DNA of 64,000 nt from Patescibacteria group bacterium UBA3466 (GTDB lineage Bacteria; Patescibacteriota; Minisyncoccia; Phycocordibacterales; UBA918): assembly GCA_002378195.1 (NCBI GenBank), contig DFRJ01000002.1, forward strand, positions 329,677-393,676, written 5' to 3'. How positions within the stretch are numbered: the first letter of the stretch is position 1; the number at the start of each line of letters is the position of its first letter. A program made the translations under genes and the position numbers. The notes beneath the pieces were generated by a model, which saw nothing but the letters and a program-made list of their open reading frames with translations, did not search any database and was not told the DNA's origin. Positions 446 through 31,942 of the stretch are shown here, piece after piece.

Positions 446-1984
446 TTACCGCAAAATCGTTTTTACATCATTGATTTCTTTCTCAATCAAGGTCTCGGAT
501 ACTTCCAATGCTTGAGTGAGCCCTTCTACAGCTTCTTTTTCTTTCGCTGACAACCGTTTCCTCTTAGTTATTTCGTTGATCTGGTCGTAGATTTCATCCC
601 TGAGGGCTGAGAAGATTTTCTCCATCTGATCCTGAATTTCTCTTGTTTCTCGACGCAACTTCTCTTCTTTCTCCTTCAAATTTCGGTGCTCATACCAGAA
701 GTATATTATCTGGAGAATAATTATAACAATTAAGAAGAAAATAAATAAGTTGGTGGCTGTGAAGAAGTCCCAGAACGAGCCTTCATCCAAATCTTCTACT
801 GGTTTTACCCATCCTGCCTCGATCAGAACTGGCGCGCTACTTTCTCGCTCATTCCCAGCCATGTCCGTCGCCACAACCTTTACTGTATAGGTACCGTCTA
901 TTAGTTCTCGCAGCAGATATCCTAGGCGAGCTTCATCTGGCGTAATACGGATTGGCTCATTGTCCGCGATGGTCATCTCATAGTAGTCAATTCCTGAAGT
1001 TTTATCATCTGCCTCAAATCGAACTAGCGGGAATGAATCCGGAGTGTTACCAGGCACAATCGTTACCACGAATGGTTCTGGCGGGGTTGTGTCTATCTTG
1101 AGCTTTCTGTTTGTTACTGCACCCCAGCCTACTTGGTTTTGGAAGTTGATACTTACGTATTGCTCACCATCTGAGACCAACTCTGGTGTAATAGCAAATT
1201 CTTCTACCGGTGGATCAATGATTGCCTCTTCATTATCTTGAGGCACATTCTCTGGATCATCACTAATTTCAATTGCTACGACATTTACATCAAACGGTAG
1301 TGTCCAAGTGAAGAGTCCGGTTGTTTCGTTGTACCACGTATCTGGATCAAGGAAGGTTTGTGATCCGATTTCCGGTGGACGTGGTGGATCTCCAAAGATA
1401 ATAGCTTCACCATCTTCCGAACTAACGTCTCCTTCATCAGATGTTGGCTCTGGTGTCGGAGTAGGCTCCGGAGTTGGAGTTGCAGCGGCAGTCACACTGT
1501 ATGAAGCGTTTGTTGCACTTCCGTACACATCTGTACCTCGTCCGTCTGCCGCCAAAACAGACGCTTCAGAAACTGTTACATTTCCAGTACCCTCACCGAC
1601 CACTCTAAATGTGACGGTCAATAAGTTTGAAGTAGAAGTAAACGGAGTAGGGCTTCCGCCGCCAAACTCAATCGTCCCAGCTGAATTTGAAAAAGTAGGT
1701 TCAGTTGTCCATAGTGAAAAAACTGAACCATCCTTACTAAGACTAACTACAGATAGTACGTCGGAATTAAAGTTCAAGGTAGATTCAACAGCATTAATAT
1801 TATCCCCATTAGGAACGGCTCTGATGGTGGCTGTAAACGTCTGTCCAGATGAATATGAACCGGTGCTTGGCGAAATAGCCAGGTCTGCAGCCAAAGCAAT
1901 GGTTAGAGAAGCGTAAAACGCAAATAGGCCGATTGCTAATGCGGCGAGGAAATGAACGGTTTTTTTAATAAGGTACTGCATCAT
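446..1984 (-). CDS. Membrane-anchored surface protein with an N-terminal cohesin-like domain, a PT/PE-rich linker, a C-terminal TM helix and a cytoplasmic coiled-coil tail
   Basis: The N-terminus is a signal peptide (LAALAIGLFAFYASLTIALA). The next ~140 aa (ISPSTGSYSSGQTF...LTVTFRVVGEGTGNVTV) look like a cohesin domain. The linker is TPTPEPTPTPEPT. A hydrophobic helix (LFIFFLIVIIILQIIYFW) is followed by a K/E-rich coiled coil. Confidence 0.6.
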   Translation of the reverse strand: MMQYLIKKTVHFLAALAIGLFAFYASLTIALAADLAISPSTGSYSSGQTFTATIRAVPNGDNINAVESTLNFNSDVLSVVSLSKDGSVFSLWTTEPTFSNSAGTIEFGGGSPTPFTSTSNLLTVTFRVVGEGTGNVTVSEASVLAADGRGTDVYGSATNASYSVTAAATPTPEPTPTPEPTSDEGDVSSEDGEAIIFGDPPRPPEIGSQTFLDPDTWYNETTGLFTWTLPFDVNVVAIEISDDPENVPQDNEEAIIDPPVEEFAITPELVSDGEQYVSINFQNQVGWGAVTNRKLKIDTTPPEPFVVTIVPGNTPDSFPLVRFEADDKTSGIDYYEMTIADNEPIRITPDEARLGYLLRELIDGTYTVKVVATDMAGNERESSAPVLIEAGWVKPVEDLDEGSFWDFFTATNLFIFFLIVIIILQIIYFWYEHRNLKEKEEKLRRETREIQDQMEKIFSALRDEIYDQINEITKRKRLSAKEKEAVEGLTQALEVSETLIEKEINDVKTILR

Positions 1985-2575: not shown

Positions 2576-4540
2576 CTATCCAGTCCAGTTAAAGAGTAAG
2601 ATTGAGAAGTCAGTCAGGTTTACCGACCCATCCAGGTTGATGTCAGCTGGCGGATCCGAATCTCCCCCGTTACTGTTCCACCAGAACAACAAGATCGAGA
2701 AGTCAATCAAGTTAACGCTGCCGTCCCTATTTAAATCAGCGTTAATTGGCAATTCAGCATCCTGTCCTACTCCATAAAAAGTATAGTTTGAGAATTGTGT
2801 TTCCGCTCCACCATCTTGCTCTGACCTAGCCCGAACCTGGTACGTGTCACGACTAAATCCTTGAGTGCTGAGCTCTATACTCCATAGACCTGCACCGTTT
2901 GAGGTTGTCACCAGACTATCGGTAGCGGGCAAATTAATACGACTATTCTCTACTGTCACTGTAGCATTTGGTAGTGCGGAACCAGAAAACGTTACTGTTT
3001 GTCCAGGATCAACCGGATCCGGCGTGACTAATATAGTTGGTGCGATATTAATATTACTCAAAGCAGATGTACGTGCACCAGTCACCGTGAATGATGTGCT
3101 AAAGGTGGAAGATCGAGTGTCGTCACCATCTTCTGCATAGACACCGAAGGTATAAGCCCCTCTAGCAATTTCATCGATAGTAATATCATACTCACCTCGA
3201 CTGTTTGTCCGGGTACTATCTACAAAATTACCATCTACTAATATGGAAACTGTACTGTTGGGGTAAGCATAACCAGACACAACAACCCGACCGTCTCCAC
3301 TTCGATAAGGCGCATCTTCACTTTCAAAACCACCCCCAGCAGACGAGCCTGAGTTACCCCCAGAACCACCTCCGCCTCCTCCGCCGCCTCCTCCGGTACC
3401 ACTAGAACCACCTTCTAGTGGGGCCTCTCCATCGGCTTCACCTTCAGTTCCTCCACCACCATCACCAGTTCCAGTCCCTGAGTCTCCTGATCCAGTACCA
3501 TCACCTTCAGTTGAACCTTCGTCATTGGCTGTACCAGTTGGCTGCTCGTTCACAACAAAGCTAATGATGTAGTCGTCGATATTAAAGTTTCCTTCGTCGT
3601 CGATACATCTAACATAGAAAGTTGCCAACGTTCCCGGCGTCACAGCCACTACCGTTGAATGATAAATCAATCCGGTATTAGAGAATAATTCAGTCATCGA
3701 GCCGAAAGCCGTACCGGCGGTTGTGGAATAGCGACAAAAAGCAAATTCGTCAGTCTCCAGTGAGATTTCCACACTCAAGGTCGTACCTCCCACTGTACTA
3801 GTCGGCGACCCGTTAAAACGATACGGCGGTATCTCTTCGGTAGTATCAATGTTCGGCATCGATACGCGCCTATTTAAAAAGATTACAAAATCTGCGTTAG
3901 CCACCAAGCCACCGTCATATATCTCCATCTGCACATCATGCCGACCAAGTACCGAACTATTAACTATCGGCTCCACATCAGCAGCGGTAGTGGTGGTACC
4001 GGTACTAGTACTGAATCCTGTAGAAGCGGCATTGGCAGTACCGGTATGACTACCGATCCTTAACTCGAGATTAGAGCTAGAAGAAATTCCTGAGTCAGGT
4101 GCCAGAGTATAGCGAATAAAACCTGGGCTCCCAGTTGTAATATCTACCCCGTCCACCCCAGGCGAAGGTGTGGTCGTAGACACTCTCGGTACACCATCTA
4201 CAAACAGCTGTACATTTCGCACATCAAAAGTAGAAGTGGCCAGGATCTCAAAACCGTCTGGAGGAGTGACTTCTATTTGGCTACTCGGTGAAATATCAGT
4301 ATTAAGTACGAATGATAGCGTATGATTGGCCGGAGCGTTTGGTGCCGAATCAGAAATAACATCACTATACTCTAAGATATTTACTGCCGCAGCCTCATTT
4401 GGGAATAGCACAAACACCCAACTCAGCAAAAGAGCCGCGGCTATAGCCAAAAACTTGTATCGGTTGGATACTAAATTCATATTTAATATATTGTACCTTG
4501 TAGACTGCGGTTTTTTTGTCGCATTACACAGTTGTAGCAA
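2576..4540 (-). CDS. Secreted protein with a Gly-rich linker, Ig-like region and a C-terminal type-I dockerin (two Ca-binding repeats)
   Basis: The N-terminus is a signal peptide. A long Gly stretch (GGGGGGGGGGSGG) follows. The C-terminus has DLNRDGSVNLIDFSILLFWW and DINLDGSVNLTDFSILLFNW, which match the dockerin DxNxDGxVNxxD-helix repeat pair. Confidence 0.65.
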   Translation of the reverse strand: MLQLCNATKKPQSTRYNILNMNLVSNRYKFLAIAAALLLSWVFVLFPNEAAAVNILEYSDVISDSAPNAPANHTLSFVLNTDISPSSQIEVTPPDGFEILATSTFDVRNVQLFVDGVPRVSTTTPSPGVDGVDITTGSPGFIRYTLAPDSGISSSSNLELRIGSHTGTANAASTGFSTSTGTTTTAADVEPIVNSSVLGRHDVQMEIYDGGLVANADFVIFLNRRVSMPNIDTTEEIPPYRFNGSPTSTVGGTTLSVEISLETDEFAFCRYSTTAGTAFGSMTELFSNTGLIYHSTVVAVTPGTLATFYVRCIDDEGNFNIDDYIISFVVNEQPTGTANDEGSTEGDGTGSGDSGTGTGDGGGGTEGEADGEAPLEGGSSGTGGGGGGGGGGSGGNSGSSAGGGFESEDAPYRSGDGRVVVSGYAYPNSTVSILVDGNFVDSTRTNSRGEYDITIDEIARGAYTFGVYAEDGDDTRSSTFSTSFTVTGARTSALSNINIAPTILVTPDPVDPGQTVTFSGSALPNATVTVENSRINLPATDSLVTTSNGAGLWSIELSTQGFSRDTYQVRARSEQDGGAETQFSNYTFYGVGQDAELPINADLNRDGSVNLIDFSILLFWWNSNGGDSDPPADINLDGSVNLTDFSILLFNWTG

Positions 4541-7602: not shown

Positions 7603-8859
7603 TTATCTGGCTTTAACCCTTTTCAGATCTGACCACTGAGTCGTATAAGCTGGTGACCTGGTTTCTGATCTTGATTGCCACTCAGCTTTTTTCAGCCGAC
7701 TTCCGATCTGCACCAATTCACTATCCGCTTTCTCATTTAAAATATCGATAGAACTCATGAGGTCTCTCCTGTCTTCTTCTTTGCAATCATTAAACATAGT
7801 AGTCTGACTTCCTCCAGCCGGCACCAAATTAGATAAGCTAACTCCGACTTTTTTATAGGGCACATCTGGCTCATAGAGCCGCTCCACCAAGTTGCTGGCG
7901 ACTTTCATTAAACTAAGTGTATCGCTAGTTGGGTTGATAAATATCGTTTCATCTGAGCCTCCTCTTAGTAGAAAATCTCCATGTCGATTAGTTCCCAGAT
8001 AAACTCTAATATTCAGTGTTTCTTTAGCTATTCTTCGCAGATCTTCTGCTACATGCCGCACATGATAAGCTACTGCATCTTGCAATACCGCCAGCTCCTT
8101 TGTCTCAACTTTGAAGGATCTTGAACTTAAAATACTCTTTTGTTTTCGATCACCCTGCTCTATCAACAAAGCCGGTTCACTACGCAGTTCAGACTGTATT
8201 CTAAGTCCATTTATACCGAATAATTTAGCCACCACCGACCGATCTAGCGCTGTTAAATCAGCCACTGTTTTTAAACCATGCGATCGATAATTGAGCTCGG
8301 AACTAGCGCCCAGTCCCCATATTTCCGCCAATCTTATACCGTCCACCAATCCGTCCCACTCAGTTTCTCCAATAACCCTTACACCTACGCCTTTTTTGGC
8401 TACGGCGTTGGCGTACTTTGCCTGAGTCTTGGTGAGAGACACGCCAATCGAAACGGGTATACCAACCTCTTGCAAGATGATTGATCTCAGATTATTAGCA
8501 ATATCTTCCACCTCAGCCTCTGGCGGTAAAGTAAAGAATGCTTCGTCGACTGAATACTGCTCAACGTTTGCCAGCTCTCGCTTCACTACCTCAAAAACTC
8601 GCTTTGAGATATCTCGATACAGAGCCAAATGCGAAGAGAACGTTACAATTCCCTCTTTTTTAACAATGTCCTTTATCTTAAAATAAGGGACACCCATAGG
8701 GACACCTATGTCCTTTACTTCTTTAGAGCGAGCCACTACACAGCCGTCATTACTTGATAAAACCAGTACCGGAACATTCTTTAATTCGGGCCTAAAGAGT
8801 CTTTCGCAGGATACAAAAAAATTATTACAATCTAACAATCCGATCCACTGCTTTTTCAT
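7603..8859 (-). CDS. umuC: Y-family translesion DNA polymerase, UmuC-like (Pol V catalytic subunit)
   Basis: N-terminal LLDCNNFFVSCERLFRPEL...VLSSNDGCVVARS matches UmuC (LCDVNAFYASCE...VLSNNDGCVIAR). The catalytic SVDEAF motif is present. The C-terminus YTTQWSDLKRVKA matches the UmuC C-terminus YTTRWSDLLRVK. Confidence 0.85.
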   Translation of the reverse strand: MKKQWIGLLDCNNFFVSCERLFRPELKNVPVLVLSSNDGCVVARSKEVKDIGVPMGVPYFKIKDIVKKEGIVTFSSHLALYRDISKRVFEVVKRELANVEQYSVDEAFFTLPPEAEVEDIANNLRSIILQEVGIPVSIGVSLTKTQAKYANAVAKKGVGVRVIGETEWDGLVDGIRLAEIWGLGASSELNYRSHGLKTVADLTALDRSVVAKLFGINGLRIQSELRSEPALLIEQGDRKQKSILSSRSFKVETKELAVLQDAVAYHVRHVAEDLRRIAKETLNIRVYLGTNRHGDFLLRGGSDETIFINPTSDTLSLMKVASNLVERLYEPDVPYKKVGVSLSNLVPAGGSQTTMFNDCKEEDRRDLMSSIDILNEKADSELVQIGSRLKKAEWQSRSETRSPAYTTQWSDLKRVKAR

Positions 8860-8898
8860 CTGCTAATTATAGCCAGCAAATCAGATGGGAGCAATCGA

Positions 8899-10110
8899 TT
8901 AGAAGAGTTTCCACATTTTTTGATCTTCCTCCCCGTCCACCTTGAATACTGCCACCCCCTTGAGGCCATAATCTTCCGCCAACTCGACCTTTTCTTCGAT
9001 TGCTTTAGCGTCACTCCAAGTGATCATTCTGACTGGAATTTCAATACCAGCATAAGTAGCCACCAGAAGAGCTTTAGCCGCTGCTTCAAATCCTTTTGGT
9101 GTATCGTCTGGAGTAGGTAAAGCATTAAAAATTTGCCAAGGGGAATCATCAGGGAAATAGGTTATCACCGCCTCGCCACCATCTGTCCTACCGATTGGTG
9201 AATCGTATTTATCAGCCAGCTCTAGTATCCTAGGCTGGTTTAAAGTAGCCACTAAATCATAGTCTTTGTACCATTCTGGAGCGACAGTAACATCCCAAGC
9301 CCGGCCATAGGTAGCCACTCCGAGCATCACCTTATCTTCATCAAAATCATCCAGAGCAAATTCAACAACTTTCTCCGCCCAATCGATATCAGCTACTGGA
9401 TTGTAAGGCACACCTCGCCTTTCATTATTCAGTTTAATATCAGCTCTCTGCTGGTCATAAGCCATAATTTCTACCCAATCGCAGTGGCGGTTTATAGCTC
9501 GGTAATCATTTGCATATTCAATCTCCGCTGGGACAGCGCGAAACCGTGACTCAGGTGGAGTTCTGGCTTCGATCGTACAAGTCAGCTCGTCTCTTCCCAG
9601 CTCATCCTCCAGCTCTTCTAAAAACTCAGAAAAGTAATCAATGGTTTCGGCCAGCTTTGATTCATAGTCGATGTTGATACCATCAAAATCATTACGCTTA
9701 ACCAGCCTGACGATATCGTCTATATGATCTTCTCTTAAATCATTATCACTTAAGACACTATGTATCGCCTCACCATCAAACCACGCAATGGTTGGAATCA
9801 CCTCAACTCGTCGATCTTCAGCTTCATCCAACAAGTCGTCCCAATGATCATCGTCAAAATCGACACGATTTTTTATATCTCCCAATCCTTCCACCTCATA
9901 AACAAACGGATAAATAATATCGATATCCCTAATGTTATCTAGAGCACTTTCAACACCAGCCTCATCAGCCCACCACGGTATCCAGACACCCACTTCTTGC
10001 CGAGCCTCAGCCACTGCTGGCAAGAAGAAAAAACCGGCTAAAATAATGCCGACATAGAGATGTAGTAATGTATTAACTGATGATCTCATATTCTTTAAGA
10101 CGCAAATCAT
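8899..10110 (-). CDS. Glycoside hydrolase family 18 (chitinase-like) secreted or membrane-anchored protein
   Basis: N-terminal TM/signal. The GH18 catalytic motif FDGINIDYE (DGxDxDxE) is present. MLGVATYGRAW (the YGR region) and GLKGVAVFKVDGEED (C-terminal GH18 motif) are also present. Confidence 0.7.
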   Translation of the reverse strand: MICVLKNMRSSVNTLLHLYVGIILAGFFFLPAVAEARQEVGVWIPWWADEAGVESALDNIRDIDIIYPFVYEVEGLGDIKNRVDFDDDHWDDLLDEAEDRRVEVIPTIAWFDGEAIHSVLSDNDLREDHIDDIVRLVKRNDFDGINIDYESKLAETIDYFSEFLEELEDELGRDELTCTIEARTPPESRFRAVPAEIEYANDYRAINRHCDWVEIMAYDQQRADIKLNNERRGVPYNPVADIDWAEKVVEFALDDFDEDKVMLGVATYGRAWDVTVAPEWYKDYDLVATLNQPRILELADKYDSPIGRTDGGEAVITYFPDDSPWQIFNALPTPDDTPKGFEAAAKALLVATYAGIEIPVRMITWSDAKAIEEKVELAEDYGLKGVAVFKVDGEEDQKMWKLF

Positions 10111-10139
10111 TTCAGTTTCTTACAAATTTTATTAAATTA

Positions 10140-10589
10140 TTACAACAAAGTACGCGCGCTACCCGTCACCACACCCCAAATATAACAATCCTCCATCTCA
10201 TTAACTGCAATTGGTTCATAACCGACCTGCTCGGAGACCAACACCATAGCCCCAGATATCATTTTTAGGCGCTTTACCACCATTTCACCATACACTGCTG
10301 CCACCACAATATGACCATCTTTTGGTGTGACTGATCTGTCCACCACCAGGATATCGTTATCAAAAATCTTGGCTCCTTCCATCGAATCACCAGATACACG
10401 CACAAAAAAGGTGGCCGACTCGTTTTGCACTAGCAAATCATTGATGTTTAGTGACTTTTCCACTAAATCATCACCGGGAGCAGGGAAACCGGCGGCAGGC
10501 TGGCTGGCATACAAAGGATGTTCTGTAGCCTGATTTATATCAGCCATTGAGATGCTTTTAACTACAGTTTCTTTAGGCTGGTTGCTCAT
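10140..10589 (-). CDS. umuD: UmuD-like S24 peptidase (LexA C-terminal-domain fold without an N-terminal HTH)
   Basis: Ser-Lys dyad context: VRVSGDSMEGAKIFDNDILVVD ... VVKRLK. The likely autocleavage site is AAG|F. At 149 aa it has no room for a DNA-binding domain. Confidence 0.75.
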   Translation of the reverse strand: MSNQPKETVVKSISMADINQATEHPLYASQPAAGFPAPGDDLVEKSLNINDLLVQNESATFFVRVSGDSMEGAKIFDNDILVVDRSVTPKDGHIVVAAVYGEMVVKRLKMISGAMVLVSEQVGYEPIAVNEMEDCYIWGVVTGSARTLL

Positions 10590-10628: not shown

Positions 10629-11735
10629 TTAGGCTATAATCGCCCCCGTGGTCAGAAGTGAATGGGCATACCATAGTCCTCCCATACCAATCAGTAACAC
10701 AAATCCGTAGGCAACTTGTTCAAAATGTAGTCGTCTAGCCTCTTGTACTATAGAAACCCCCAACATTGACACAATTAAGACAGATAACGCTAAGTACACC
10801 AGCTGCAACATTGTATTAGGTTGAGTCATAAAGGAAGACAAGGTGGCTCCAGCATGAGACTCGGGAGTATGAGAAACCTGCGCTGCTACCAAACCAGAAG
10901 AAGTGGCAATCACTGGAGCTTCCATCACCACCACTTCTTCACCCTCAGGTGTAGTTGCAACATACACCACATCAGATTCTAGTGATTCTGATCCTGTAAC
11001 ACTATCAGCAGTTTCGTCCGGCTCGACTTCAACCAACACGGGAGGAACCTCCACCTGTTCAGGTACTACCTCAGAAACCGTTTTCTCTGCAACGATGTCT
11101 ACAACTTCAGGCAATGGCGTAGCTGTTTCTGCTACCGCCAACTCCACAGCCTCGGGTTCGATCGTTACTTCAGCTAGTGATTCGGGGATATCATCAACCA
11201 CTGCAGGAGTACCGAATAATTGCACTACATAGACGGTCTCGTAACCATCAAATTCACCTTTGTAGGTACCGACGCCAATTTCTGTGTACAAATTACTAAC
11301 AATGTTCTGACGGTGGGTCGGCGAATCCATCCAGGCTTCAACCACTTCCGAAGAATCGGTAAAGTGAATAGCCAGATTTTCTCCTGCGTGGGCGTAGACG
11401 TAACCCGCTTGATCAAACCAATGCCACGGAGAAACTCCATCTGGACTAAAGTGAGAGAAATACTCATTCTTGGCCATGTGCTTAGCCTTCATTCGTGCCG
11501 CCTCATCAAGCACTGCATTTCGCTTTAGAGGCATGGCAGCATTATCAGCCCGCTCTTCGTTGGTTAAATCAACCACCACTGAAGGCAAAACGGTGGACAC
11601 TAACCACTCTGAAGACTGCCATAAAATTGCGTGCAAATTAGCCCCAACAAATGTCAAAAGGATCAGCGCCGCCATCAGCGTAGCCGAAATCTTTTGCAGC
11701 TTATCCAGTCCCCTTCTGGTGGTTTTTTTAAACAT
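10629..11735 (-). CDS. CAP/SCP (YkwD-like) domain protein with N-terminal signal anchor, Glu/Val/Pro-rich linker and C-terminal TM segments
   Basis: YFSHFSPDG...HAGENLA...WMDSPTHRQNIVSNLYTEIGVG matches the YkwD/CAP signature. Confidence 0.75.
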   Translation of the reverse strand: MFKKTTRRGLDKLQKISATLMAALILLTFVGANLHAILWQSSEWLVSTVLPSVVVDLTNEERADNAAMPLKRNAVLDEAARMKAKHMAKNEYFSHFSPDGVSPWHWFDQAGYVYAHAGENLAIHFTDSSEVVEAWMDSPTHRQNIVSNLYTEIGVGTYKGEFDGYETVYVVQLFGTPAVVDDIPESLAEVTIEPEAVELAVAETATPLPEVVDIVAEKTVSEVVPEQVEVPPVLVEVEPDETADSVTGSESLESDVVYVATTPEGEEVVVMEAPVIATSSGLVAAQVSHTPESHAGATLSSFMTQPNTMLQLVYLALSVLIVSMLGVSIVQEARRLHFEQVAYGFVLLIGMGGLWYAHSLLTTGAIIA

Positions 11736-11794
11736 GAAGCTCTTTAAAAGTTGTATATATTTAACTATAAATAACTATTTTGTCAATATATAAC

Positions 11795-11823
11795 AAAAAG
11801 ACCCTGTGGAAAGGGTCTTTTTG
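11795..11823 (-). terminator. Intrinsic terminator (AAAAAGACCCTGTGGAAAGGGTCTTTTTG) after the giant surface-protein gene
   Basis: GC hairpin plus T-run, read directly from the sequence. Confidence 0.7.
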
Positions 11824-11837
11824 CTATCTGACTATAG

Positions 11838-14800
11838 TTAGTCGATATCGACGTTCGAATCAAGGTCTTCTCCTTCAAAGTCAGGATACTCCTCGCTTCC
11901 CGGACAAACTATATCATTGATCTTCCAACGCGTTGTTTTGTAAACAAATCCAGTTGGGTCACTGTGCGGAACAATTCCCTTCTCAAACCAAGGAACTAGG
12001 ATTTCGTCGCTGTAGTTCAATTGGAATTGCTTAACGGCTGCGTCTGTCGCTGCGTCAAACTCACCAGTTACCGCCACGTCGTAGCCCATTACGATACTGA
12101 GGAACATCTGTAGCTTAGTCACTTCCCAACGATCATTTTCCCATCCAACTTGCATGAAATCGATAATGAATGGGCACTGATTCACAGTCGAAGCACCGAG
12201 TACAATTCCTTCTGGAGCTGGTTCAGTTGTTCTGGTTCTAGTTCCAGATGAACTACCGCCAGATGAAGTTTCTTCCTCAGGCTCTTCTGGTTCTTCAGGC
12301 TCTTCTTCCACCACCTGATTTACAAAGTCACAACGGTTACCTTCGTAGATTGGCTCATCAATAACGATCAGAGCCGACAAGCTGTTTCCAATTGTAGTGA
12401 AAATTGATTCGTCCTCGATATAGAACTCACACGACATACTGTCAGTGTCTCCAGTTAACACCTGTAGGTTCTGTCTCACTTCTACTTGCTCATAACCAGC
12501 TGGCATCGCTTCAACCACCACATAGTCATCGCCAAGCAATACGTCGAAGTAATAGTAACCAGTATCATCGGTTGAAGTTGAGGCGATTACATTACCTTCT
12601 CCATCTTCTAGGTAGATAGTCCATCCAGCTTCAGGAACTTCTTGCGCATCTACTAACAAGTACTTGTAACCATCGATTCTTTCAGTCGGCTCTTCAGACA
12701 GAGCGTTGTAGAAGTCACATGTGTATGGTGTCTCATCGTCCATAGACAAGCCTTCGCTACCATACTGCTTTGGATCAAATTCTAGATAACAAGATTCGTA
12801 ACCTTCGCCATTAATGAAGTCATACTCACCTTCATACTCGACTCCGACCTGGTACCAGCCTAGTTGCATAACTTCTGAGACTTCATAATCTCCAACTGGT
12901 GCGTAGAAGTAGTAGTAACCACTGTCGTCAGTTGTAGTTGAGGTGATAAGTTCTTGGTCTTCGTAAAGCTCAATTGTCCAGCCAGCTAGCGGTGTTGCGT
13001 ACTCTGGATCGCCTTCAAACTTATAACCTTCGATCAACATCATGTCTGACGTATCATCGTCACAAGGAACGATAGTTTCTTCATGAATGTCAAAACGGAA
13101 TCCGTCAGATTGAGTATCGACCCACAGTCGGAAGTCTACTCCGTCATAATCTGGAGTCGCGACATCTGAACCATCGTCAGTCGGAACGTTATTAGTTTCA
13201 GAGTGATTCTCTAGCTTGAAACTACCTGAAAGATTACTGAAGTTAGTAATTCCTGCGTCTCGTACTTCAATTCGAGCGTCAATCCATTCATTGTTGGTAT
13301 TACCTCCAGGATTATGCTTACCGTACAACGCCACCTTAACTGTTCCACCTTCTCGACTCACAAACAGACCTGATTTATTACCTGGGTCATCGAAGTTAGT
13401 CACCGTGTGCGGGTCGTTGATCATGGTTGCTGAGGTCTCTCCAGATTCGATAATAGAAACTGGGAACCATTCACCAAATTCAACTGTAGTGTAAGCAGCA
13501 TCACCAAGGATAACTTGCTCATTTAAATGTCCGTTACCAGTATTACCAGTTTCATTCAAGATTACTCGTGCTTCCACAGTCGCCTTACATTCCGGACAGT
13601 TATACTCTTCACCATTGTTTACCTCCACAGCCACAGCGTCTTCACCAGTGGTTAGGTAAAACTCGAAATCTACTCCCTCGTCACCATTCTTATCGAAGAT
13701 GTCAGGATAGCTACTATCCTCAGGATCCTCTAGTTCCCAACCAGGAACCGGACCTCGATCTACTGCCCCAAGATCAATACCTTGAGTCATAATGTTTCCA
13801 AAGGCATAATCGAACTGAGATCCATTATTTCCTCCGCTGATAGCTAACCGGAGATCAGTGCCGTTTCTTTCAACTGCAATTCCGTCCACATCAAGCGCAA
13901 AGCTATTGATAGTTGCATCTCCCACCTCGTCAAAATTGAACCAGGTTCCGGCAGGAATCACATTGTCTTCGTCTCCTAGGTAAATATTCCCATCAAATGA
14001 TACTGATTCAGGAGCATTATCAAGCGAGATCTTTACTAGACGTAAGTCAGTACACTGATTGTCGAGCGTACAATAATCTGTACAGTCGGTGTCACCCGGC
14101 TCACACATTTCCCATCCAGTTACTTCACCGTCACCACAATAAGAGGCGTAGTCTGGCTCCTCAGGCTCTGGCACGTAAGGAATCTCACACAAATCTCCTT
14201 CACCTTCAATTACCAGTTCGTAATACAGTCCAGCCGGGTTATTGGCAGGATTACTGTTACCTGCAAAATTTTCCACCACTACCGACAATTCGTTATTTCC
14301 ACTCTGAATTAGGCCAGTAACATCATACTCCTTAGTAGCAGTATGGTTCACACCACCCAATTCTTCTCCGGCCAGAGCGTCGTTTAGTGAGGCAGAGAAA
14401 TTATTGTCAGCCGCGATATACAGGGTAGCTTCAGTCAAAACGTCACCATTCCAACCAAATTGATTTACAAAAGTCTGTGTTTCTGACTCACTCGGGTTTT
14501 GCGGACCTTGATCTCCCCAGATCCACTCTGCAAGTGGCAATGATTCAGTCCAATTGTCATGGATAAAATCTAGCACTACTGCAAGAGCTCCGTCCTTTTC
14601 AACCACCGTATTTGTATCATCACTCTTAATTGTCACTGTACACTGGGTTGGTACTTCTGGCTCTTCACAGCTTCCGTCAATAATAGTAATCGCGTCAAGA
14701 TCGAAACCGTCACCGTTTGATCCTTGCACACCATTTGACTGGTCCACCAACTTAACAAACTTAACAAAGTCCAGATTGGTATCAGCAATATCAACAGTTC

Positions 14801-16493
14801 CGTCTCCAGTAAGAGTATCGGCTAGTTCGAAGTTAATTCCATCCTCAGACAGATAAACATCAATCATTTCCCCTGTAGCATCAGTGCCTCCGGTAATTTC
14901 CCAGATAGCAATATCTGCACCGGCCTGATCGACAGCGATCTTGTTATCGAATTCATACACCAATTCTCCATTGATACCCATTGAATAGAAGTCTAATGGA
15001 TTCACTTCCCAATCACTCCCCTCGCTACCAAAGAAGTTTGAATATGGTGCTACACCAGCTTCAACAGCTGCCACATCACCTCTAGCAGCATCTACAGCAC
15101 CACCGCCATTTGTTAGACCTTGAATGTGAGACACCACCTGCCCTTCGTAAGTACATACTGACGGAGCTTCGGGCTCTTCTGTTTCTTTCAAGAAGTAAGC
15201 TCGAGCCACCGGTGTGAGCTGTTGCACGAAAGAAGGTGCAACTTGTAGGGTGCTGAGTGCTAGTTGAGGCACTTCTGGGATGTCGATGTAGTCATACTGA
15301 CCATCAATGTCATTAACTACAATACTTGGACCAGCATTGATGTTGTCAGTAAAGATGTGTGGGATGTCGGCACCTTCGTTATGTGTACTGGTATTGGCAA
15401 TATTAAGCACTGAAGGTGATGTAACCTCAAAACCTGGCGCCACATTAATACCGTGCCAGCCGTTATTTTCGGTTGTAATATCACTTGCGTCTACAGTCGA
15501 ACCGTTAACCACGATTCCACTACCTTCAAAATCCTTAACAGTTACATTTTCTAGAGTAATATCGATTGATTCGTAGATATTAATTCCATGCAATTGCTCA
15601 GGCCAAGGCTGATCACCACTGCTCATCAACACAACATCTTTTACAGTCACACCGTCAGTATTGGTAATACCCAACACAGCGTTGTTACTATTGCTAGTTT
15701 TCACAAACTGACCGTCTACGGTAAAACCGTTACCGTCTAGCACAATCGCCTTTGTGATGCTTGTTTGTTCTGTAGTAGAGATGTCAGCTGTCAGCTCAAT
15801 TGTTTCTCCAGCTTCAGTTGTAGCTGCATCAATTGCTTCTTGAATAGTCGCAAAAAATAGATCATCCTCTACATTTCGAACCGTTCCTGCAGGTGCAATT
15901 GGAGTACCGGTAACTACAACATTATCTAGCTTGAACACCTCGTTACTAGTGAAGAAAGCGTTAAATTGTAGCAGTACGCTTGGCTTATCATCCATATCAG
16001 ATGACAAATTGATCTCAGTTAGCGTCCAATCAGAAGTATCGTCACCATCGCCGTCAGAGTAAGTTTTTACTACATCTGCGCCAGTTGGAATAGTCCCTGG
16101 AGTAGCTCGCAGTGTAACACTTTCGCCTGCTTCCAGGTTATCAAGCTGGTAGTAATATGAAACCTTGATGTCTTCATATCCCACAGTTGAAAAACCTGCC
16201 CGTAGTAAAGCATCGGTTGGTGAGGTGGTAGATACCTGGGCGCGGATGTTTCCTTCTTGTGCTCCAGCCGCATTGTTTACGGTTGCCCAAGCGTCACCGA
16301 CTAAAGCTCCGATCCAGTTGCTAAAATCTTCAGTCTCAAAACTGTCTGAAAACAGTACGTCTGGTGCAGCCGCCTCAGCAACATTAAAATTGAAAAAAGT
16401 CGCAGGCACTGCGCTCACTAGTAATGACACGATAGTAAGAGCGGCAAATAGCTTTGCCGAAAATCTCCCCTTCGTCAGAGAATTAATATTCAT
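11838..16493 (-). CDS. Giant (1551 aa) secreted multidomain surface protein: signal peptide, right-handed beta-helix (PbH1-like) repeats, Cys-containing modules, two tandem CnaB/SdrD-B-like repeats, a PEEPEEPEEPEEE linker, and a C-terminal peptidoglycan-binding (PG_binding_1-like) domain
   Basis: Beta-helix rungs (NNAVLGITNTDGVTVKDVVL...NVTVKDFEGSGIVVNGSTV). Repeats GWTIELYEDQELITSTTTDDSGYYYFYAPVGDYEV and GWTIYLEDGEGNVIASTSTDDTGYYYFDVLLGDDYVV. The C-terminus VTGEFDAATDAAVKQFQLNY matches the PG-binding motif. Confidence 0.7.
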   Translation of the reverse strand: MNINSLTKGRFSAKLFAALTIVSLLVSAVPATFFNFNVAEAAAPDVLFSDSFETEDFSNWIGALVGDAWATVNNAAGAQEGNIRAQVSTTSPTDALLRAGFSTVGYEDIKVSYYYQLDNLEAGESVTLRATPGTIPTGADVVKTYSDGDGDDTSDWTLTEINLSSDMDDKPSVLLQFNAFFTSNEVFKLDNVVVTGTPIAPAGTVRNVEDDLFFATIQEAIDAATTEAGETIELTADISTTEQTSITKAIVLDGNGFTVDGQFVKTSNSNNAVLGITNTDGVTVKDVVLMSSGDQPWPEQLHGINIYESIDITLENVTVKDFEGSGIVVNGSTVDASDITTENNGWHGINVAPGFEVTSPSVLNIANTSTHNEGADIPHIFTDNINAGPSIVVNDIDGQYDYIDIPEVPQLALSTLQVAPSFVQQLTPVARAYFLKETEEPEAPSVCTYEGQVVSHIQGLTNGGGAVDAARGDVAAVEAGVAPYSNFFGSEGSDWEVNPLDFYSMGINGELVYEFDNKIAVDQAGADIAIWEITGGTDATGEMIDVYLSEDGINFELADTLTGDGTVDIADTNLDFVKFVKLVDQSNGVQGSNGDGFDLDAITIIDGSCEEPEVPTQCTVTIKSDDTNTVVEKDGALAVVLDFIHDNWTESLPLAEWIWGDQGPQNPSESETQTFVNQFGWNGDVLTEATLYIAADNNFSASLNDALAGEELGGVNHTATKEYDVTGLIQSGNNELSVVVENFAGNSNPANNPAGLYYELVIEGEGDLCEIPYVPEPEEPDYASYCGDGEVTGWEMCEPGDTDCTDYCTLDNQCTDLRLVKISLDNAPESVSFDGNIYLGDEDNVIPAGTWFNFDEVGDATINSFALDVDGIAVERNGTDLRLAISGGNNGSQFDYAFGNIMTQGIDLGAVDRGPVPGWELEDPEDSSYPDIFDKNGDEGVDFEFYLTTGEDAVAVEVNNGEEYNCPECKATVEARVILNETGNTGNGHLNEQVILGDAAYTTVEFGEWFPVSIIESGETSATMINDPHTVTNFDDPGNKSGLFVSREGGTVKVALYGKHNPGGNTNNEWIDARIEVRDAGITNFSNLSGSFKLENHSETNNVPTDDGSDVATPDYDGVDFRLWVDTQSDGFRFDIHEETIVPCDDDTSDMMLIEGYKFEGDPEYATPLAGWTIELYEDQELITSTTTDDSGYYYFYAPVGDYEVSEVMQLGWYQVGVEYEGEYDFINGEGYESCYLEFDPKQYGSEGLSMDDETPYTCDFYNALSEEPTERIDGYKYLLVDAQEVPEAGWTIYLEDGEGNVIASTSTDDTGYYYFDVLLGDDYVVVEAMPAGYEQVEVRQNLQVLTGDTDSMSCEFYIEDESIFTTIGNSLSALIVIDEPIYEGNRCDFVNQVVEEEPEEPEEPEEETSSGGSSSGTRTRTTEPAPEGIVLGASTVNQCPFIIDFMQVGWENDRWEVTKLQMFLSIVMGYDVAVTGEFDAATDAAVKQFQLNYSDEILVPWFEKGIVPHSDPTGFVYKTTRWKINDIVCPGSEEYPDFEGEDLDSNVDID

Positions 16494-16555
16494 ATTTATT
16501 CAGTCTAGTCTGTTAAGTTTTTATACACGGCATCCCAAATTTGTCGCGTAGGAGA

Positions 16556-16582
16556 ATATTACTCTACTGACACGAATTTGCA
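16556..16582 (-). promoter_or_regulatory. Sigma-70-like promoter (TTGCAA-N16-TAATAT) upstream of the giant surface-protein gene
   Basis: Read from the minus strand. The spacing is appropriate. Confidence 0.35.
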
Positions 16583-16616
16583 AGTTGGAACACACAATTT
16601 ATCTGTTGACAAGACT

Positions 16617-17537
16617 CTAACGATCAGCCTCTTTTGCCGGCATACGCCGCACCGACTGGATTGAAGCACAAACGCTTTTATTGGTGCTAGAAGCCACTAA
16701 TTCAGCCCTCTCCGGCACACCAGCTCTTATTTCTATCTCGTCGGCATGTTCACGCATTCTTTTTATAAACATATCTCGCTCGTAACGCATCTCTTCTAAG
16801 GACATCGCCCTATCCATCATCCACGGAAAAGCGCCGCAGGCATAAAATCTACCGCTATCAACATCAGATGATCGACCGATCAGTCTAACTATTTTCTGCG
16901 TAGCCAATAGAGTCAAATCACGCTCGTTTAGCTCACTCACATCCATTACCCAGCGCCCACCATCAACGTCAACAAACACTACTGTCGTACTAGGTACCGT
17001 ATCCTCAAACACTCTCTGACCTAATAGACGACCTTCCGCTGGGGCTTGCCAGAGCTTTTGCTCCATCTTTTCTTGTGACATGTACATTTTGATATGAGTA
17101 CCGAGAGCATTATCAACCACATGCCCCAAATCGCTCGCCTGTAACAAAACTCCGACTACCACGCTCATAGCAACACTACTCCCTACAATCATCCAAGCTG
17201 GATACCTGTAACCCCTCACTGTGTGTCTTATATTAAAGGTTGCAAAATAGGCCATCAAACCAAACACCAAAAACCATAAATACGGCAAAGCTTCCACCAT
17301 AAATGTTAGCCAGTTGTCATGGGTTGCCTCATAAAAAGCATACTGACGGTTCATTACCACAAAGAGAGATACGGCTACGGCCATGGCCCCAACCACCACT
17401 GACAACACCCAAAACAACCAGACCGAACACTCTCGACACAGGAAAAAGAATCGTGACTTTGGACACACCTGCTCTGACTCGATTCTTTTAAAGAGCGCGT
17501 CTTTCAGATTATTCTCGTTTTGATCTGGCTTTTTCAT
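16617..17537 (-). CDS. Membrane protein, putative anti-sigma factor. It has a short cytoplasmic N-terminal Cys motif (C-x10-C-x2-C), then TM helices and an extracytoplasmic domain
   Basis: It lies directly downstream of, and is probably co-transcribed with, the ECF sigma gene. The topology fits; there is no sequence-family match by eye. Confidence 0.45.
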   Translation of the reverse strand: MKKPDQNENNLKDALFKRIESEQVCPKSRFFFLCRECSVWLFWVLSVVVGAMAVAVSLFVVMNRQYAFYEATHDNWLTFMVEALPYLWFLVFGLMAYFATFNIRHTVRGYRYPAWMIVGSSVAMSVVVGVLLQASDLGHVVDNALGTHIKMYMSQEKMEQKLWQAPAEGRLLGQRVFEDTVPSTTVVFVDVDGGRWVMDVSELNERDLTLLATQKIVRLIGRSSDVDSGRFYACGAFPWMMDRAMSLEEMRYERDMFIKRMREHADEIEIRAGVPERAELVASSTNKSVCASIQSVRRMPAKEADR

Positions 17538-17551
17538 AACTATTCACAACC

Positions 17552-18136
17552 TTATATACGTAACTTCTCAGTATTTAATACATTTTGTAGCTGCTTTTTG
17601 CCTCGATGCAATAGCGTACCCACTGACCCCACCGGTATCTTCAAAATATCAGATATCTCATCGTATTCTTTATGTTCAAAAAAACGCAATATGATTACTT
17701 CTCGATACTTATTATCAAGCTGTAGCAATGCTCTATTTAAAACCTCCGCATTGATACCCTGGTCAAACACCACGTCCGCGGCATCTTCCTTCGCGCTCAA
17801 AAAAGAAATAACTTCTTCTCCATCAGCGATCAAATGTCCTTCAGGACGCACATTCTTCTTCCGATACCAACTAATCGCCTCATTGTGGGCAATCCGATAG
17901 ACCCACGAAGAAAACTTCAGAGAAGTATCGAAGCCATTGATATTGCGATAGGTTTTCAAGAAAATGTCTTGTAGGACATCACTTTGGTCTTCTGGATCCC
18001 GTACACCTAGACGGGCGATATACCTAGTTAATTTTGCTTGATAGCGATCCACCAAAACACCAAAGTGCTCTTTGTCACTAATAGTTAACTTTACGATCTC
18101 TTCATCGCTTGGTGGAAGTTCGGGTGTACCGTCCAT
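17552..18136 (-). CDS. ECF-type sigma-70 family RNA polymerase sigma factor
   Basis: Region 2 (DVLQDIFLKTYRNINGF...WVYRIAHNEAISWYRKK). Region 4 HTH (REVIILRFFEHKEYDEISDILKIPVGSVGTLLHRGKKQL). Confidence 0.8.
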   Translation of the reverse strand: MDGTPELPPSDEEIVKLTISDKEHFGVLVDRYQAKLTRYIARLGVRDPEDQSDVLQDIFLKTYRNINGFDTSLKFSSWVYRIAHNEAISWYRKKNVRPEGHLIADGEEVISFLSAKEDAADVVFDQGINAEVLNRALLQLDNKYREVIILRFFEHKEYDEISDILKIPVGSVGTLLHRGKKQLQNVLNTEKLRI

Positions 18137-18406
18137 AAAATAATGTATCCGTGTCTAACAATAGTTGCATGAAACGGACTTAAATTAAACCAGTGCTGAT
18201 TAATAGTACGCTAAGAGTTCGTTAAAATTTCGAGTATCGCCATTCAGGCCGCTTATTTTCACATGCTCCGATGTCCACCCAACCAAACCGAGCACTCAAT
18301 CCCCTCAGGCGCTCAAATATGCGGCCTACACGACTCCATTGTCAAACAACAGTACTTATGCCACTATGCGCATATTCATACCAACCAACAAAATGGAGAG
18401 GATGAC

Positions 18407-18905
18407 TATGAATAGTGTTCTAAAGACTGTAAGTCTGATAATTTTAGCGACAATTGTACCCCTATCTGGCTGCGACAAAAAAGAGGAAGTGCTGCCACCG
18501 GACAACATCATCAAGGAAGAGGTGGCCACACCTGCACCCGCACCAGAGCTGGCGCCGCCAGTTGAGGCTGTAGCTATATCAAATGCAGACATCGCCGGTC
18601 GGCCGTTACCACAGGACGAAATCGTCATCGACCAGGAAGAGGTGGCTGAAATGCTCACCGAAGAAGTAGCGAACGAGATACTTCAGTCCGGCACCGTGGT
18701 ATTCATCTTCAATGATGGCTCGGCTAACACTGAACTGGTAGTAGATGTCTATCACTGCATCAGTGACGATGAAGTTGATCAACAGTGTGTCCAAAATGAA
18801 GCAGAAAAAGTCATTCCTGGCACCGCTTACCGTCGTACGGACTATTGCATTAACAGTTGCAGCTCCAAAGGTCAGTCCGAGATCACGCGAGTGATTGAAG
18901 GCTAA
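18407..18905 (+). CDS. Putative lipoprotein (lipobox LSGC), acidic secreted protein of unknown function
   Basis: The ORF track gives 18339-18905. A GGAGAGG RBS precedes the ATG at 18407 (MNSVLKTVSLIILATIVPLSGC). Confidence 0.5.
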
Positions 18906-23197: not shown

Positions 23198-23289
23198 TAC
23201 TAATCCTCGCTATTCGCGCATTAGATAATAAAAAGGTACTAGAACCATCAATATCTTGCAACAAAAAAGCCGCATAGGCTCTTTTGTCC

Positions 23290-23805: not shown

Positions 23806-23851
23806 TATTAACTCCTCGCTTTCGCGTAGTTAAGAGTTTTTTAAGATACTG
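23806..23851 (-). promoter_or_regulatory. Conserved ~46-nt leader (minus strand: CAGTATCTTAAAAAACTCTTAACTACGCGAAAGCGAGGAGTTAATA), copy 1, containing the RBS and a CGCGAAAGCG mini-hairpin
   Basis: It is near-identical to 24587-24632, and a diverged copy lies at 23198-23225. Confidence 0.6.
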
Positions 23852-24076
23852 TAGCAATCTAGATAATGCAAATCACAGCATACCCTACTGACCAAGCAGG
23901 TCAGCTGCCTCTTCTGCACCATTAATCATTTCGTTGTATTCCCGCCTTTGCTCAGCCATAGTTTTACCCTCGGTAGACTGATTGGCGCTGGTCATCCACC
24001 ATATTGCAAAAGCAGTTACGAATAAAATAGAAATTAAACTGAATACTCTCATTGAGTTAGTTTACTATATAAAAAT

Positions 24077-24586: not shown

Positions 24587-24632
24587 TTCTAACTCCTCGC
24601 TTTCGCGTAGTTAAGAGATTATTAGGATACTG
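24587..24632 (-). promoter_or_regulatory. Conserved ~46-nt leader, copy 2 (minus strand: CAGTATCCTAATAATCTCTTAACTACGCGAAAGCGAGGAGTTAGAA)
   Basis: It matches 23806-23851 over a 29-nt core (TAACTCCTCGCTTTCGCGTAGTTAAGAG), with 4 mismatches in the full 46 nt. Confidence 0.6.
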
Positions 24633-24704
24633 CAAACAATACGCTCTAGCAAATAAAAAAGCTGCTAGAGATACCTCCAGCAGCCTACCGACAGCTTACA
24701 GTGA

Positions 24705-28813: not shown

Positions 28814-29416
28814 TTAGTTTCTATTCCAGCCTCTATCTGGCAATTCCACTCCAGCTTCTTCTAAAATTGATCGTACCGTCTCTCTATCATTGGCTGCTCT
28901 TGCCACTCGCACCGCCTCTCGCTGCTCTTCGGTCAAATTCTCAATAATATCTGGTCTTTCCGGCTTGTGCTTACGCTCTATCCCTAAGTCATCAAAGATC
29001 TCTCGTGCCTCTTCGTGCTGCCCATCTTCTCTCAGTTCATGAGCTTCCCTAAATTTCTCAAAGTCAGCTTCAGAGGTAATAATATCGGCCAATGGACCGT
29101 CTTCTATCGCCTCTACAAAAGCTTCGTAGTCATTGTTCTCCACCGCTTCCCTTACCTCATTCTTAATCTCTCGCTTTGCGTCGCGAATAGACCGCATCAC
29201 TTCTTCATCAATACCAGCTTCGATTAGAATGTCTCTGGCTGAATCAGCATCTCCGTTTTTTCTTAGCTCATGCGCTTCTTCCAACGCAGCTATTTGATCC
29301 TCTGAAATATTGGCTCTTTGCAGAACCTTAGTCCCGCCATACGCATGCACTCCGGTCGTAGTGACCGCAAAGGCTGCTATGGCAATAAGTAATGATTTCG
29401 ATTGCATAAATTTCAA
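28814..29416 (-). CDS. Secreted helical repeat protein (three ~35-aa E/R-rich repeats)
   Basis: Signal peptide. Repeats EAHELRKNGDADSARDILIEAGIDEEV, FREAHELREDGQHEEAREIFDDLGIE and VRVARAANDRETVRSILEEAGVELPD. Confidence 0.5.
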   Translation of the reverse strand: MKFMQSKSLLIAIAAFAVTTTGVHAYGGTKVLQRANISEDQIAALEEAHELRKNGDADSARDILIEAGIDEEVMRSIRDAKREIKNEVREAVENNDYEAFVEAIEDGPLADIITSEADFEKFREAHELREDGQHEEAREIFDDLGIERKHKPERPDIIENLTEEQREAVRVARAANDRETVRSILEEAGVELPDRGWNRN

Positions 29417-31893: not shown

Positions 31894-31942
31894 GCGGAGA
31901 GTGAGGGATTCGAACCCTCGATACGATTTCTCGTATACATCC
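31894..31942 (-). repeat. 49-nt direct repeat of the 3' part of tRNA-Ser(GGA) (variable arm, T-arm and acceptor 3' strand); an att-like scar
   Basis: It is identical to 32104-32152 of the intact tRNA. Confidence 0.7.

Follow-up and report, generated by a model that had tools for sequence, protein, structure and literature searches.

Does an alternative sigma factor control the large surface protein that is encoded beside it? The question is raised by a locus on the minus strand of a 64,000-nucleotide (nt) stretch of contig DFRJ01000002.1 from the patescibacterium UBA3466 (the window), in which the gene of an extracytoplasmic function (ECF) sigma factor is followed by that of a membrane protein, here named asl, by a giant gene for a mosaic surface protein and by a gene for a CAP/YkwD-like protein. 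An earlier note, made from the sequence alone, had listed these four open reading frames (ORFs), each of which we found where it had been placed, and had read the arrangement as envelope-stress-regulated or contact-regulated expression of a major surface structure. Patescibacteria (Candidate Phyla Radiation, CPR) have tiny genomes with few regulators, and many of them live on host cells to which they are attached; to our knowledge, little has been learned about the control of their surface. The explanation that we favour, with moderate confidence as a whole, is that the SigW-like sigma factor and asl form a conserved envelope-signalling module with a TGAAAT-N16-CGTA regulon, that the giant gene is driven by a housekeeping promoter in this genome, and that the CAP gene is independent.

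The window was compared with a set of 40 loci. Thirty-one species-level genomic loci were fetched with a profile of asl, and further loci were added around homologues of the giant protein, together with four distant relatives of asl. The relatives are metagenome-assembled genomes of Paceibacteria ('Kaiserbacteria/Nomurabacteria'), and the exact proteins of the window are also present in marine material, namely on a 638-kb contig of Tara Oceans surface-water assemblies, which makes the organism a marine CPR bacterium. The Tara contigs L001-L004 show variants within the population. The order conserved in the clade is a divergent RluA-type gene, then sigma, asl, the giant gene (where present), the CAP gene, a UmuD-like gene, a GH18 gene and a UmuC-like gene. 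Because the flanking genes are equally conserved, gene order alone is little proof of a functional link. The interval between asl and the CAP gene is a variable slot: its proteins range from 728 to 1820 amino acids (aa), and it is empty, the giant gene being absent, in L024, L038 and L040.

The sigma factor comprises regions 2 and 4 only (Pfam Sigma70_r2 at residues 28-95 and Sigma70_r4_2 at 132-183). It scored 98 bits against the NCBIfam ECF superfamily model TIGR02937 (cut-off 43), which places it in the ECF group (group 4) and confirms the earlier identification. Its best matches were the SigW models NF007223 (113 bits, cut-off 209) and TIGR02948 (108 bits, cut-off 243), and the closest solved structure is that of Bacillus subtilis SigW (5wuq, E 2e-24). 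Judged by these scores it is SigW-like but not a SigW equivalog. It is an ordinary, known kind of ECF factor. Its identity is 51-79% across all related loci.

Asl is the fixed partner of sigma. Its ORF begins 14 nt past the sigma stop codon, it lies directly downstream of sigma in all 39 loci examined, and in 34 of 35 loci a gap of -4 to 23 nt separates the two genes. Four distant loci have the same pair, with identities of 51-61% for sigma and 30-34% for asl and with other genes downstream. No Pfam family matched asl, and a profile search recovered a family of 2,121 clusters at 50% identity, all of about 300 aa. The AlphaFold model of asl (pLDDT 82.8) shows a short N-terminal helix (residues 11-21) and three transmembrane helices, followed by extracytoplasmic helices, a five-stranded OB-like barrel (170-238) and a long C-terminal helix. 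Sequence and model together give a positive-inside topology, with a cytoplasmic part of about 38 aa containing one short helix and with the OB-fold domain, which has two invariant cysteines, outside the membrane. The N-terminal motif hLxRIExExhxPxS+xxF is preserved even at 30% overall identity.

Asl had been described as anti-sigma-like with a Cys-rich N-terminus. Class I anti-sigma factors have an N-terminal domain of some 80-90 aa with four helices, often carrying HxxxCxxC. Asl is not a class I or zinc-binding anti-sigma factor (ASD, zf-HC2, RsiW/RslA/ChrR type), and 23 members of its family gave no match to zf-HC2 or another anti-sigma Pfam family at E of 5 or below. Three cysteines (25, 34 and 37) are indeed present but do not form HxxxCxxC or any conserved His/Cys motif; C34 is unique to the window protein, and C25 and C37 vary among family members. 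What holds of the description is thus the fixed membrane partner, not a recognisable domain, and for this reason the label anti-sigma is drawn from position and topology. As a functional class, anti-sigma factors are matched by asl in its adjacency to sigma and, as predicted, in co-transcription and a sigma-binding end inside the cell. We infer from its position, its topology and its conserved cytoplasmic helix that asl acts like an anti-sigma factor; it lies outside every described anti-sigma family and is a new family.

SigW promoters are characterised by TGAAAC and CGTA (PMC5758882). Comparison across the 40 loci gave a motif of this type, TGAAAT-N16/17-CGTA, and a scan of all loci for TGAAAN-N16/17-CGTAN returned 47 matches where about 14 were expected in 1.38 Mb. 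Nine of these lie 33-140 nt upstream of sigma, in distant lineages, and twelve within an element upstream of the giant gene that is described below. By its position, the motif before sigma in the distant lineages is the classic arrangement of an autoregulated operon. Sites homologous to the sigma site of the window were found in L030-L037, L043, L045, L046, L010, L012, L014 and L018. A further gene, p200, which encodes a conserved secreted protein of about 200 aa, carries the motif in 13 loci (eleven plus L035 and the window, with L015 and L039 recognised by eye). A weight matrix was trained on the sigma and p200 sites only; bona fide sites score 14-23 and the 95th percentile of the null is 8.1. 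Scored with a matrix trained on the other loci only, the site upstream of sigma's own operon in the window reaches a value attained at only six of 256,000 window positions. The best site of the window precedes p200, and another lies in the intergenic region before a DsbA-like gene, where it is known from the window only. Two more high-scoring sites (29571-29540 and 29686-29654) are located just upstream of the p200 promoter.

The p200 protein has three helical repeats with LTEEQ...ELR..GD motifs and matches no Pfam family; its homologue in L046 gave a weak match to Metal_resist (Spy/CpxP-like, E 0.003). In L041 and L046 the p200 homologue directly follows asl, with the motif in front, and is the third gene of the sigma operon. 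Together, sigma and its predicted targets p200 and the DsbA-like gene look like a small envelope-stress regulon.

Other features around and within the sigma gene may be recorded here. In the main clade (L001-L029; window 18155-18183) the sequence TTTCATGyCAsTATTsTAC is conserved at a distance of 10-30 nt from the sigma ATG, on its upstream side. The CAT in it serves as start codon for a divergent gene that encodes a small secreted protein and that in the window is cut to four codons, ATGAAACGGACTTAA (18169-18183, plus strand). A different ORF for a lipoprotein-like protein of 188 aa (18339-18905, plus strand) follows the truncated gene. A TGAAAT-N16-CGGTA sequence inside the divergent gene of the main clade was at first dismissed as protein-coding conservation (AYFT codons with synonymous variation) and has been retained as a weak possibility; the intact site of the window is separate from it. 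Within sigma, the DNA encoding ILRFFEHKEYD of region 4 reads TTGCGtTTcTTTGAACATAAAGAGTACGAT in L007, L014, L018, L019, L023, L024, L033, L038 and L039. This was read from the relatives only, the corresponding window position being 17690-17720 on the minus strand, and it agrees with the giant-upstream element at 13 of 17 core positions. The similarity is probably a product of coding constraint plus chance; an internal promoter for asl is possible.

Is the giant gene a target of sigma as well? The TTGCAA-N16-TAATAT promoter previously proposed for it is present at 16583-16556. By itself this match agrees with the consensus at eight of 12 positions, which is the level of chance. It is, however, held in an element of about 60 nt that is common to 22 related loci. 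An nhmmer profile of the element found one match per locus, which in every case falls between asl and the giant gene (E 2.7e-9 in the window); there is no second copy in the window or the 40 loci, and the element is absent wherever the giant gene is absent. The best-conserved columns are TTGC, GAGTA with a T four bases on, CACGAC and CGTG. The element reads as a sigma-70-like promoter (-35 TTGCAa, a 16-nt spacer and -10 TAnnnT) with a hairpin where the mRNA is predicted to begin. A known or riboswitch-type RNA has no support: Rfam covariance models gave no match at E of 10 or below between 16400 and 16700, and RNAalifold returned only a 4-bp stem, which is invariant and for that reason makes covariation uninformative. 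A sigma-54 reading of CTTGCA (-12 TTGCA) was also rejected, as the upstream GG stands, by eye, at 8-11 nt instead of the required 10 and is not conserved.

In many relatives a SigW-type ECF sequence, TGAAAT-N16-CGTAA, is embedded within this same element. The matrix score upstream of the giant gene is at least 9 in 13 of 37 loci (binomial P 2e-7, uncorrected for relatedness); L033, L035 and L037 score 16-18, like bona fide sites, and the other ten 9-14. The window scores only -3.3 / -2.4 and has no ECF-type site, its bases at the homologous hexamers being the degenerate TGTCAG ... CCTA. The sigma-70-like part, by contrast, is fully kept, with a -10 (TAATAT) nearer the consensus than in the relatives. 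An invariant TAnnnT -10 is a hallmark of primary-type sigma factors. Moreover, the window has six copies of TTGC[AT]-N17-AGTAnnnT, of which five stand in sense upstream regions, including those of groES and three tandem small genes; as it also serves these genes, the shape is best taken as the ordinary form of a housekeeping promoter in this genome. With the ECF hexamers eroded and the sigma-70-like promoter nearer the consensus, the giant gene is here probably expressed mainly from its housekeeping promoter. Since no intrinsic terminator and no T-run occur in the 123 nt that separate it from asl, some ECF control may still reach it by read-through.

The promoter shape, TTGC[AT]N-N17-AGTAnnnT, lies at 36553-36581 (groES), 23233-23261, 23843-23871 and 24624-24652, all on the minus strand. 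The three tandem small genes are paralogous, encode proteins of 147-171 aa that belong to no family, and have a common leader, CTACGCGAAAGCGAGGAGTTA, with a hairpin and a Shine-Dalgarno sequence. The AG that immediately precedes the -10 may represent an extended -10 specific to this lineage. The mRNAs of groES (about 36500-36550, minus strand; GCGACA-N21-TGTCGC) and of the giant gene (16526-16548, minus strand) would both start with a CGCGACA... hairpin. This common hairpin is not CIRCE; it may protect the 5' end or be a shared operator.

The CAP gene had also been linked to the ECF pair, and here the proposal fails. The hairpin and T-run of the predicted terminator were found after the giant gene, and behind them the CAP gene has a TTGACA promoter of its own; TTGACA-N16/17-TAnAAT is conserved before CAP in at least ten loci. 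No ECF site precedes it: the matrix gives 1.8 in the window, and among the relatives there is only a doubtful 11.1 in L019. Judged by its promoter and the terminator before it, the CAP gene is an independent unit of housekeeping type. Its product has an N-terminal transmembrane helix, the CAP domain (residues 55-174; PF00188, 71.4 bits against a cut-off of 21.1), an acidic linker rich in V, E and P, and a C-terminal pair of transmembrane helices; it scored 113.9 bits against the YkwD model TIGR02909, below the cut-off of 171. The terminator itself is near-identical (AAAAAGACCCTwTmCACAGGGTCTTTTT) in L010, L011, L015, L017, L018 and L026. It is kept although the proteins of those genomes are only about 50% identical, which is more than a terminator requires.

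The sequence itself shows the domain content, the pairing of sigma and asl, the distribution of the motif and its loss before the giant gene; put together, these observations suggest the following mechanism. The SigW-like sigma factor would be co-transcribed with asl and would recognise TGAAAT-N16/17-CGTA(A/T). The intact motif before the sigma operon would provide autoregulation, and the same motif would drive p200 and the DsbA-like gene. Asl would hold sigma at the membrane until an extracytoplasmic cue acting on the OB domain released it, and p200 and the DsbA-like protein would then serve as stress effectors or modulators. The giant adhesin would have been an ancestral member of the sigma regulon which here depends mainly on the housekeeping promoter, with ECF input by read-through from the sigma operon only, and its 5' hairpin would stabilise an abundant mRNA; a gene for RNase J is present in the window (38713-40707). 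The earlier idea of regulated expression of the giant gene is right for the clade, in which 13 of 37 relatives have an ECF-type promoter before it, but probably not for this genome, which has retained the sigma-70 form; for the CAP gene it is wrong.

Several points weigh against this explanation. There is no ECF site within 250 nt upstream of sigma in L001, L005, L006, L007 and several other main-clade loci. TGAAAT/CGTA was assigned to sigma from position, conservation and the similarity to SigW, and of the sigma factors of the genome only the one encoded in the window entered the comparison. The core of the matrix was partly imposed, because the training sites came from a regular expression of the SigW consensus, and the site counts are not independent events because the loci are related. 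The all-beta model of the middle modules of the giant protein has low confidence (pLDDT 63). Finally, asl has no recognisable anti-sigma domain and only a short cytoplasmic part. It might be a co-regulated envelope protein or a positive sensor (transporter-like or stress-related), with sigma controlled in some other way. We regard this as doubtful, though a serious competitor: the pairing and tight spacing of sigma and asl are invariant across lineages, the cytoplasmic motif has been conserved through deep divergence, and an N-terminus inside with a sensor outside is the typical layout of an anti-sigma factor. Nor is a short cytoplasmic part in itself disqualifying, as anti-sigma factors of class II, CnrY among them, bind through a stretch of about 30-45 residues.

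It could also be argued that the giant gene is under ECF control in this genome too, either by read-through from the sigma promoter or because TTGC-N16-GAGTAnnnT is itself ECF-dependent. The second version has some force because the standard sigma-70 model does not account for the invariant GAG before the -10, so that the element itself could be the ECF target; the unbroken gap after asl, a gene order conserved in about 25 loci and the intact sites before the giant gene in 13 relatives also speak for such control. Against both stand the negative matrix score of the window, the invariant TAnnnT and the use of the same promoter shape by groES and other genes, and in L014, L035 and L037 a terminator separates asl from the giant gene. 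We consider such control in the window rather unlikely. More improbable still is that the neighbourhood has no function at all, the gene order being frozen in the clade, the pair regulating other genes and the giant gene never having been a real target. The flanks (RluA-type, UmuD-like, GH18 and UmuC-like genes) are equally syntenic, sigma and asl persist in the three loci with an empty slot, distant lineages have a different downstream gene, and a distant homologue of the giant protein (L008) has no sigma neighbour. This would leave unexplained the ECF sites before the giant gene in L033, L035, L037 and the ten lower-scoring loci, as well as the distant L046, where sigma, asl and p200 are again followed by a surface protein, a sortase and a CAP gene. 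The signalling module with the giant gene on its housekeeping promoter is thus the reading that we retain. A bolder extension of it, which we put forward tentatively and think rather less probable than the module itself, is that asl is the founder of a CPR-wide class of anti-sigma factors which bind a SigW-like sigma factor through one short N-terminal helix and sense an extracytoplasmic cue with the OB-fold, and that it was the ancestral switch of a hypervariable glycan-binding host-attachment adhesin, secondarily uncoupled in this genome. If true, the asl switch would regulate the main surface structure of an episymbiont in response to contact or to the envelope.

Coordinates of the features discussed, in positions of the window; residue numbers refer to the giant protein
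Feature	Position	Strand	Remarks
ECF-type promoter candidate, sigma operon	18233-18202	-	TCGAAAT-N16-CGTACTATT; score 15.5; ends 65 nt before sigma ATG
ECF sigma factor, SigW-like	17552-18136	-	194 aa; Sigma70_r2 + Sigma70_r4_2
asl, fixed partner of sigma, candidate anti-sigma	16617-17537	-	306 aa; from pairing and topology
Promoter and 5'-untranslated-region element of giant gene	16586-16526	-	TTGCAA 16583-16578, N16, (GAG)TAATAT 16561-16556, hairpin CGCGAC 16548-16543 / GCCGTG 16531-16526
Giant secreted mosaic surface protein	11838-16493	-	1551 aa; pI 4.05; no LPXTG
Residues 1-42, conserved signal or anchor peptide	16368-16493	-	MNI..RFSAKLFAALTIVSLL.SA.PA.FF
Residues 216-375, right-handed beta-helix, pectate-lyase-like, adhesive-type	15369-15848	-	Pectate_lyase_5, borderline
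Residues 446-960, three all-beta galactose-binding-like sandwiches and Cys-rich linker	13614-15158	-	AlphaFold/Foldseek
Residues 1167-1345, two CnaB/SdrD-B-type repeats	12459-12995	-	Pfam
Residues 1396-1408, acidic spacer	12270-12308	-	EEEPEEPEEPEEE; read from translation
Residues 1457-1494, PG_binding_1-like domain	12012-12125	-	Pfam PF01471
Intrinsic terminator after giant gene	11822-11794	-	AAAAAGACCCTTTCCACAGGGTCTTTTTG; hairpin and T-run; -25.9 kcal/mol with flanks
CAP promoter, canonical sigma-70-type	11786-11759	-	TTGACA-N16-TTAAAT
CAP/YkwD-like membrane-anchored protein	10629-11735	-	368 aa; PF00188
Best ECF-type promoter of the window, before p200	29502-29471	-	TTGAAAT-N16-CGTAATAAT; score 22.4
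p200, secreted helical-repeat protein	28814-29416	-	About 200 aa; predicted core regulon member
ECF-type promoter candidate before DsbA-like gene, intergenic	61424-61393	-	TTGAAAT-N16-CGTAATAGG; score 16.0
Membrane-anchored DsbA/thioredoxin-like protein, candidate regulon member	60561-61352	-	Thioredoxin_4 48 bits, DSBA 47 bits

The giant protein is a mosaic. Its N-terminus is 53-59% identical over residues 1-34/54 in L007, L015, L016, L018, L022, L025 and L039 (36% in L026), although the downstream modules of those seven loci differ. Of the domains that had been proposed, CnaB repeat 2, the acidic spacer and the PG_binding_1 domain stand, the beta-helix is borderline and CnaB repeat 1 falls below the cut-off. 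Pectate_lyase_5 (PF20585) scored 25.3 bits on the isolated segment (cut-off 24.3) and 21.0 in the whole protein, and Beta_helix (PF13229) 18-20 bits, below its cut-off of 25.9; homologues in the same slot carry both families. Residues 446-960 matched no Pfam family. Foldseek aligned parts of their model with galactose-binding-like domains that bind sugars in GH78 and GH2 enzymes, and also with BcsB and the carbohydrate-binding-module (CBM)-like domain of an RsgI anti-sigma factor, and a weak PDB sequence match was to a rhamnosidase N-domain (E 0.004). CnaB repeat 2 (1282-1345) scored 32.7 bits for SdrD_B (cut-off 29.7) and 26.1 for SpaA (23.1), repeat 1 (about 1167-1215) 21-24 bits; both carry AGWTI...TDDxGYYYF, and the region matches the UafA B-domain in the PDB. 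PG_binding_1 (cut-off 23) reached 28.9 bits when the segment was searched and 25.2 with the full-length protein, covering only positions 4-41 of the 57 in the profile. Most slot proteins share this C-terminal region. Near the C-terminus there is no LPXTG-like motif, the protein ending in ...EGEDLDSNVDID.

Among related genomes the modules of the slot proteins are reshuffled, duplicated or missing, whereas the signal peptide is conserved. The earlier note had left open a wall-tethered adhesin or an enzyme scaffold. A secreted adhesin-like mosaic with predicted peptidoglycan binding is what we find, and no catalytic domain was seen; for this reason, and in view of the beta-helix, the CnaB stalk, the PG-binding tail and the sugar-binding-like folds, a wall-tethered glycan-binding adhesin is favoured over an enzyme. 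With moderate strength, the giant protein is most likely a glycan-binding adhesin tethered to the wall non-covalently. In the distant L046, sigma and asl are followed, in this order, by genes for a 173-aa protein, a SpaA/DUF642 surface protein, a sortase, CAP and an S24 peptidase. There the slot between sigma/asl/p200 and CAP (L046 4172-6746) holds a 630-aa SpaA_4/DUF642 protein and then the sortase, and this slot protein is presumably anchored covalently, unlike the window protein with its PG_binding_1 tail.

Other parts of the window deserve brief mention. Downstream of CAP (7603-10589, minus strand) are the genes for a UmuD-like S24 peptidase, for a secreted protein of the GH18 family and for a polymerase of the UmuC/Y family; most relatives keep this order, in which the GH18 gene sits between both translesion-synthesis genes. 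A 512-aa cohesin-domain protein with a Big_13 domain (446-1984, minus strand) is encoded next to a 654-aa dockerin-domain protein with a Big_6 domain (2576-4540, minus strand), and both are further modular surface-assembly proteins of the same small genome. The 3' half of tRNA-Ser(GGA) is duplicated exactly over 49 nt (31894-31942 and 32103-32151), 209 nt from the gene, and a third fragment, 78% identical, is found at 32021-32043. These fragments are the att-like scar of an integrated or excised element.

A literature search found nothing on ECF signalling or anti-sigma factors in CPR, and CPR phyla are absent from the main text of the paper that reclassified the ECF factors. The locus offers a concrete promoter motif and a candidate mini-regulon for what may be one of the few alternative sigma factors of CPR, and a large uncharacterised family that appears to behave like an anti-sigma factor without any known anti-sigma domain. 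In the variable slot each species has its own version of a giant, wall-bound protein of sugar-binding-like type, assembled anew from shuffled modules, and such a protein is an obvious candidate for a role in host specificity. That the ECF promoter before the giant gene has been gained and lost amounts, in turn, to a natural experiment in the regulatory rewiring of a surface protein.

How does the locus compare with known systems? In Clostridium thermocellum, SigI-RsgI pairs an ECF-like sigma factor with an anti-sigma factor that senses extracellular polysaccharide and controls the surface proteins of the cellulosome. Here, too, a sigma factor and a membrane partner stand beside a large carbohydrate-binding(-like) surface protein, cohesin and dockerin proteins occur in the same window, and the modules of the giant protein match the CBM-like fold of RsgI (6qe7). 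The window sigma is not SigI-like, however, and the carbohydrate-binding-like modules are in the target, not in the sensor, so that the resemblance is by analogy only. The giant protein itself recalls the mosaic adhesins of Gram-positive bacteria (SdrD/UafA) in its signal peptide, beta-helix, CnaB/SdrD-B stalk, acidic spacer and C-terminal wall-binding domain, as well as in the strong shuffling of modules between species. It differs from them in lacking an LPXTG/sortase signal, anchoring by PG_binding_1 being non-covalent if it occurs, and in its middle modules, which belong to no described family.

The order sigma, membrane partner and secreted helical protein of L041 and L046 resembles that of sigma, anti-sigma and periplasmic modulator in Escherichia coli RpoE-RseA-RseB, and a DsbA-like folding factor among the candidate targets fits the theme of envelope stress. 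Neither asl and RseA nor p200 and RseB are related in sequence or fold, however, and the promoter motif differs. Closest is SigW-RsiW of B. subtilis. The differences are that the window sigma stands in a CPR host and far below the SigW equivalog cut-off (113 against 209 bits), and that asl is unrelated to RsiW, with no zinc-binding anti-sigma domain, three transmembrane helices instead of one and an OB-fold ectodomain. Nevertheless SigW is the best sequence match of the window sigma (5wuq, E 2e-24), the proposed TGAAAT-N16-CGTA is nearly the SigW consensus TGAAAC-N16-CGTA, and both systems appear to share an autoregulated operon, a membrane partner encoded downstream and predicted targets in the envelope or among secreted proteins.

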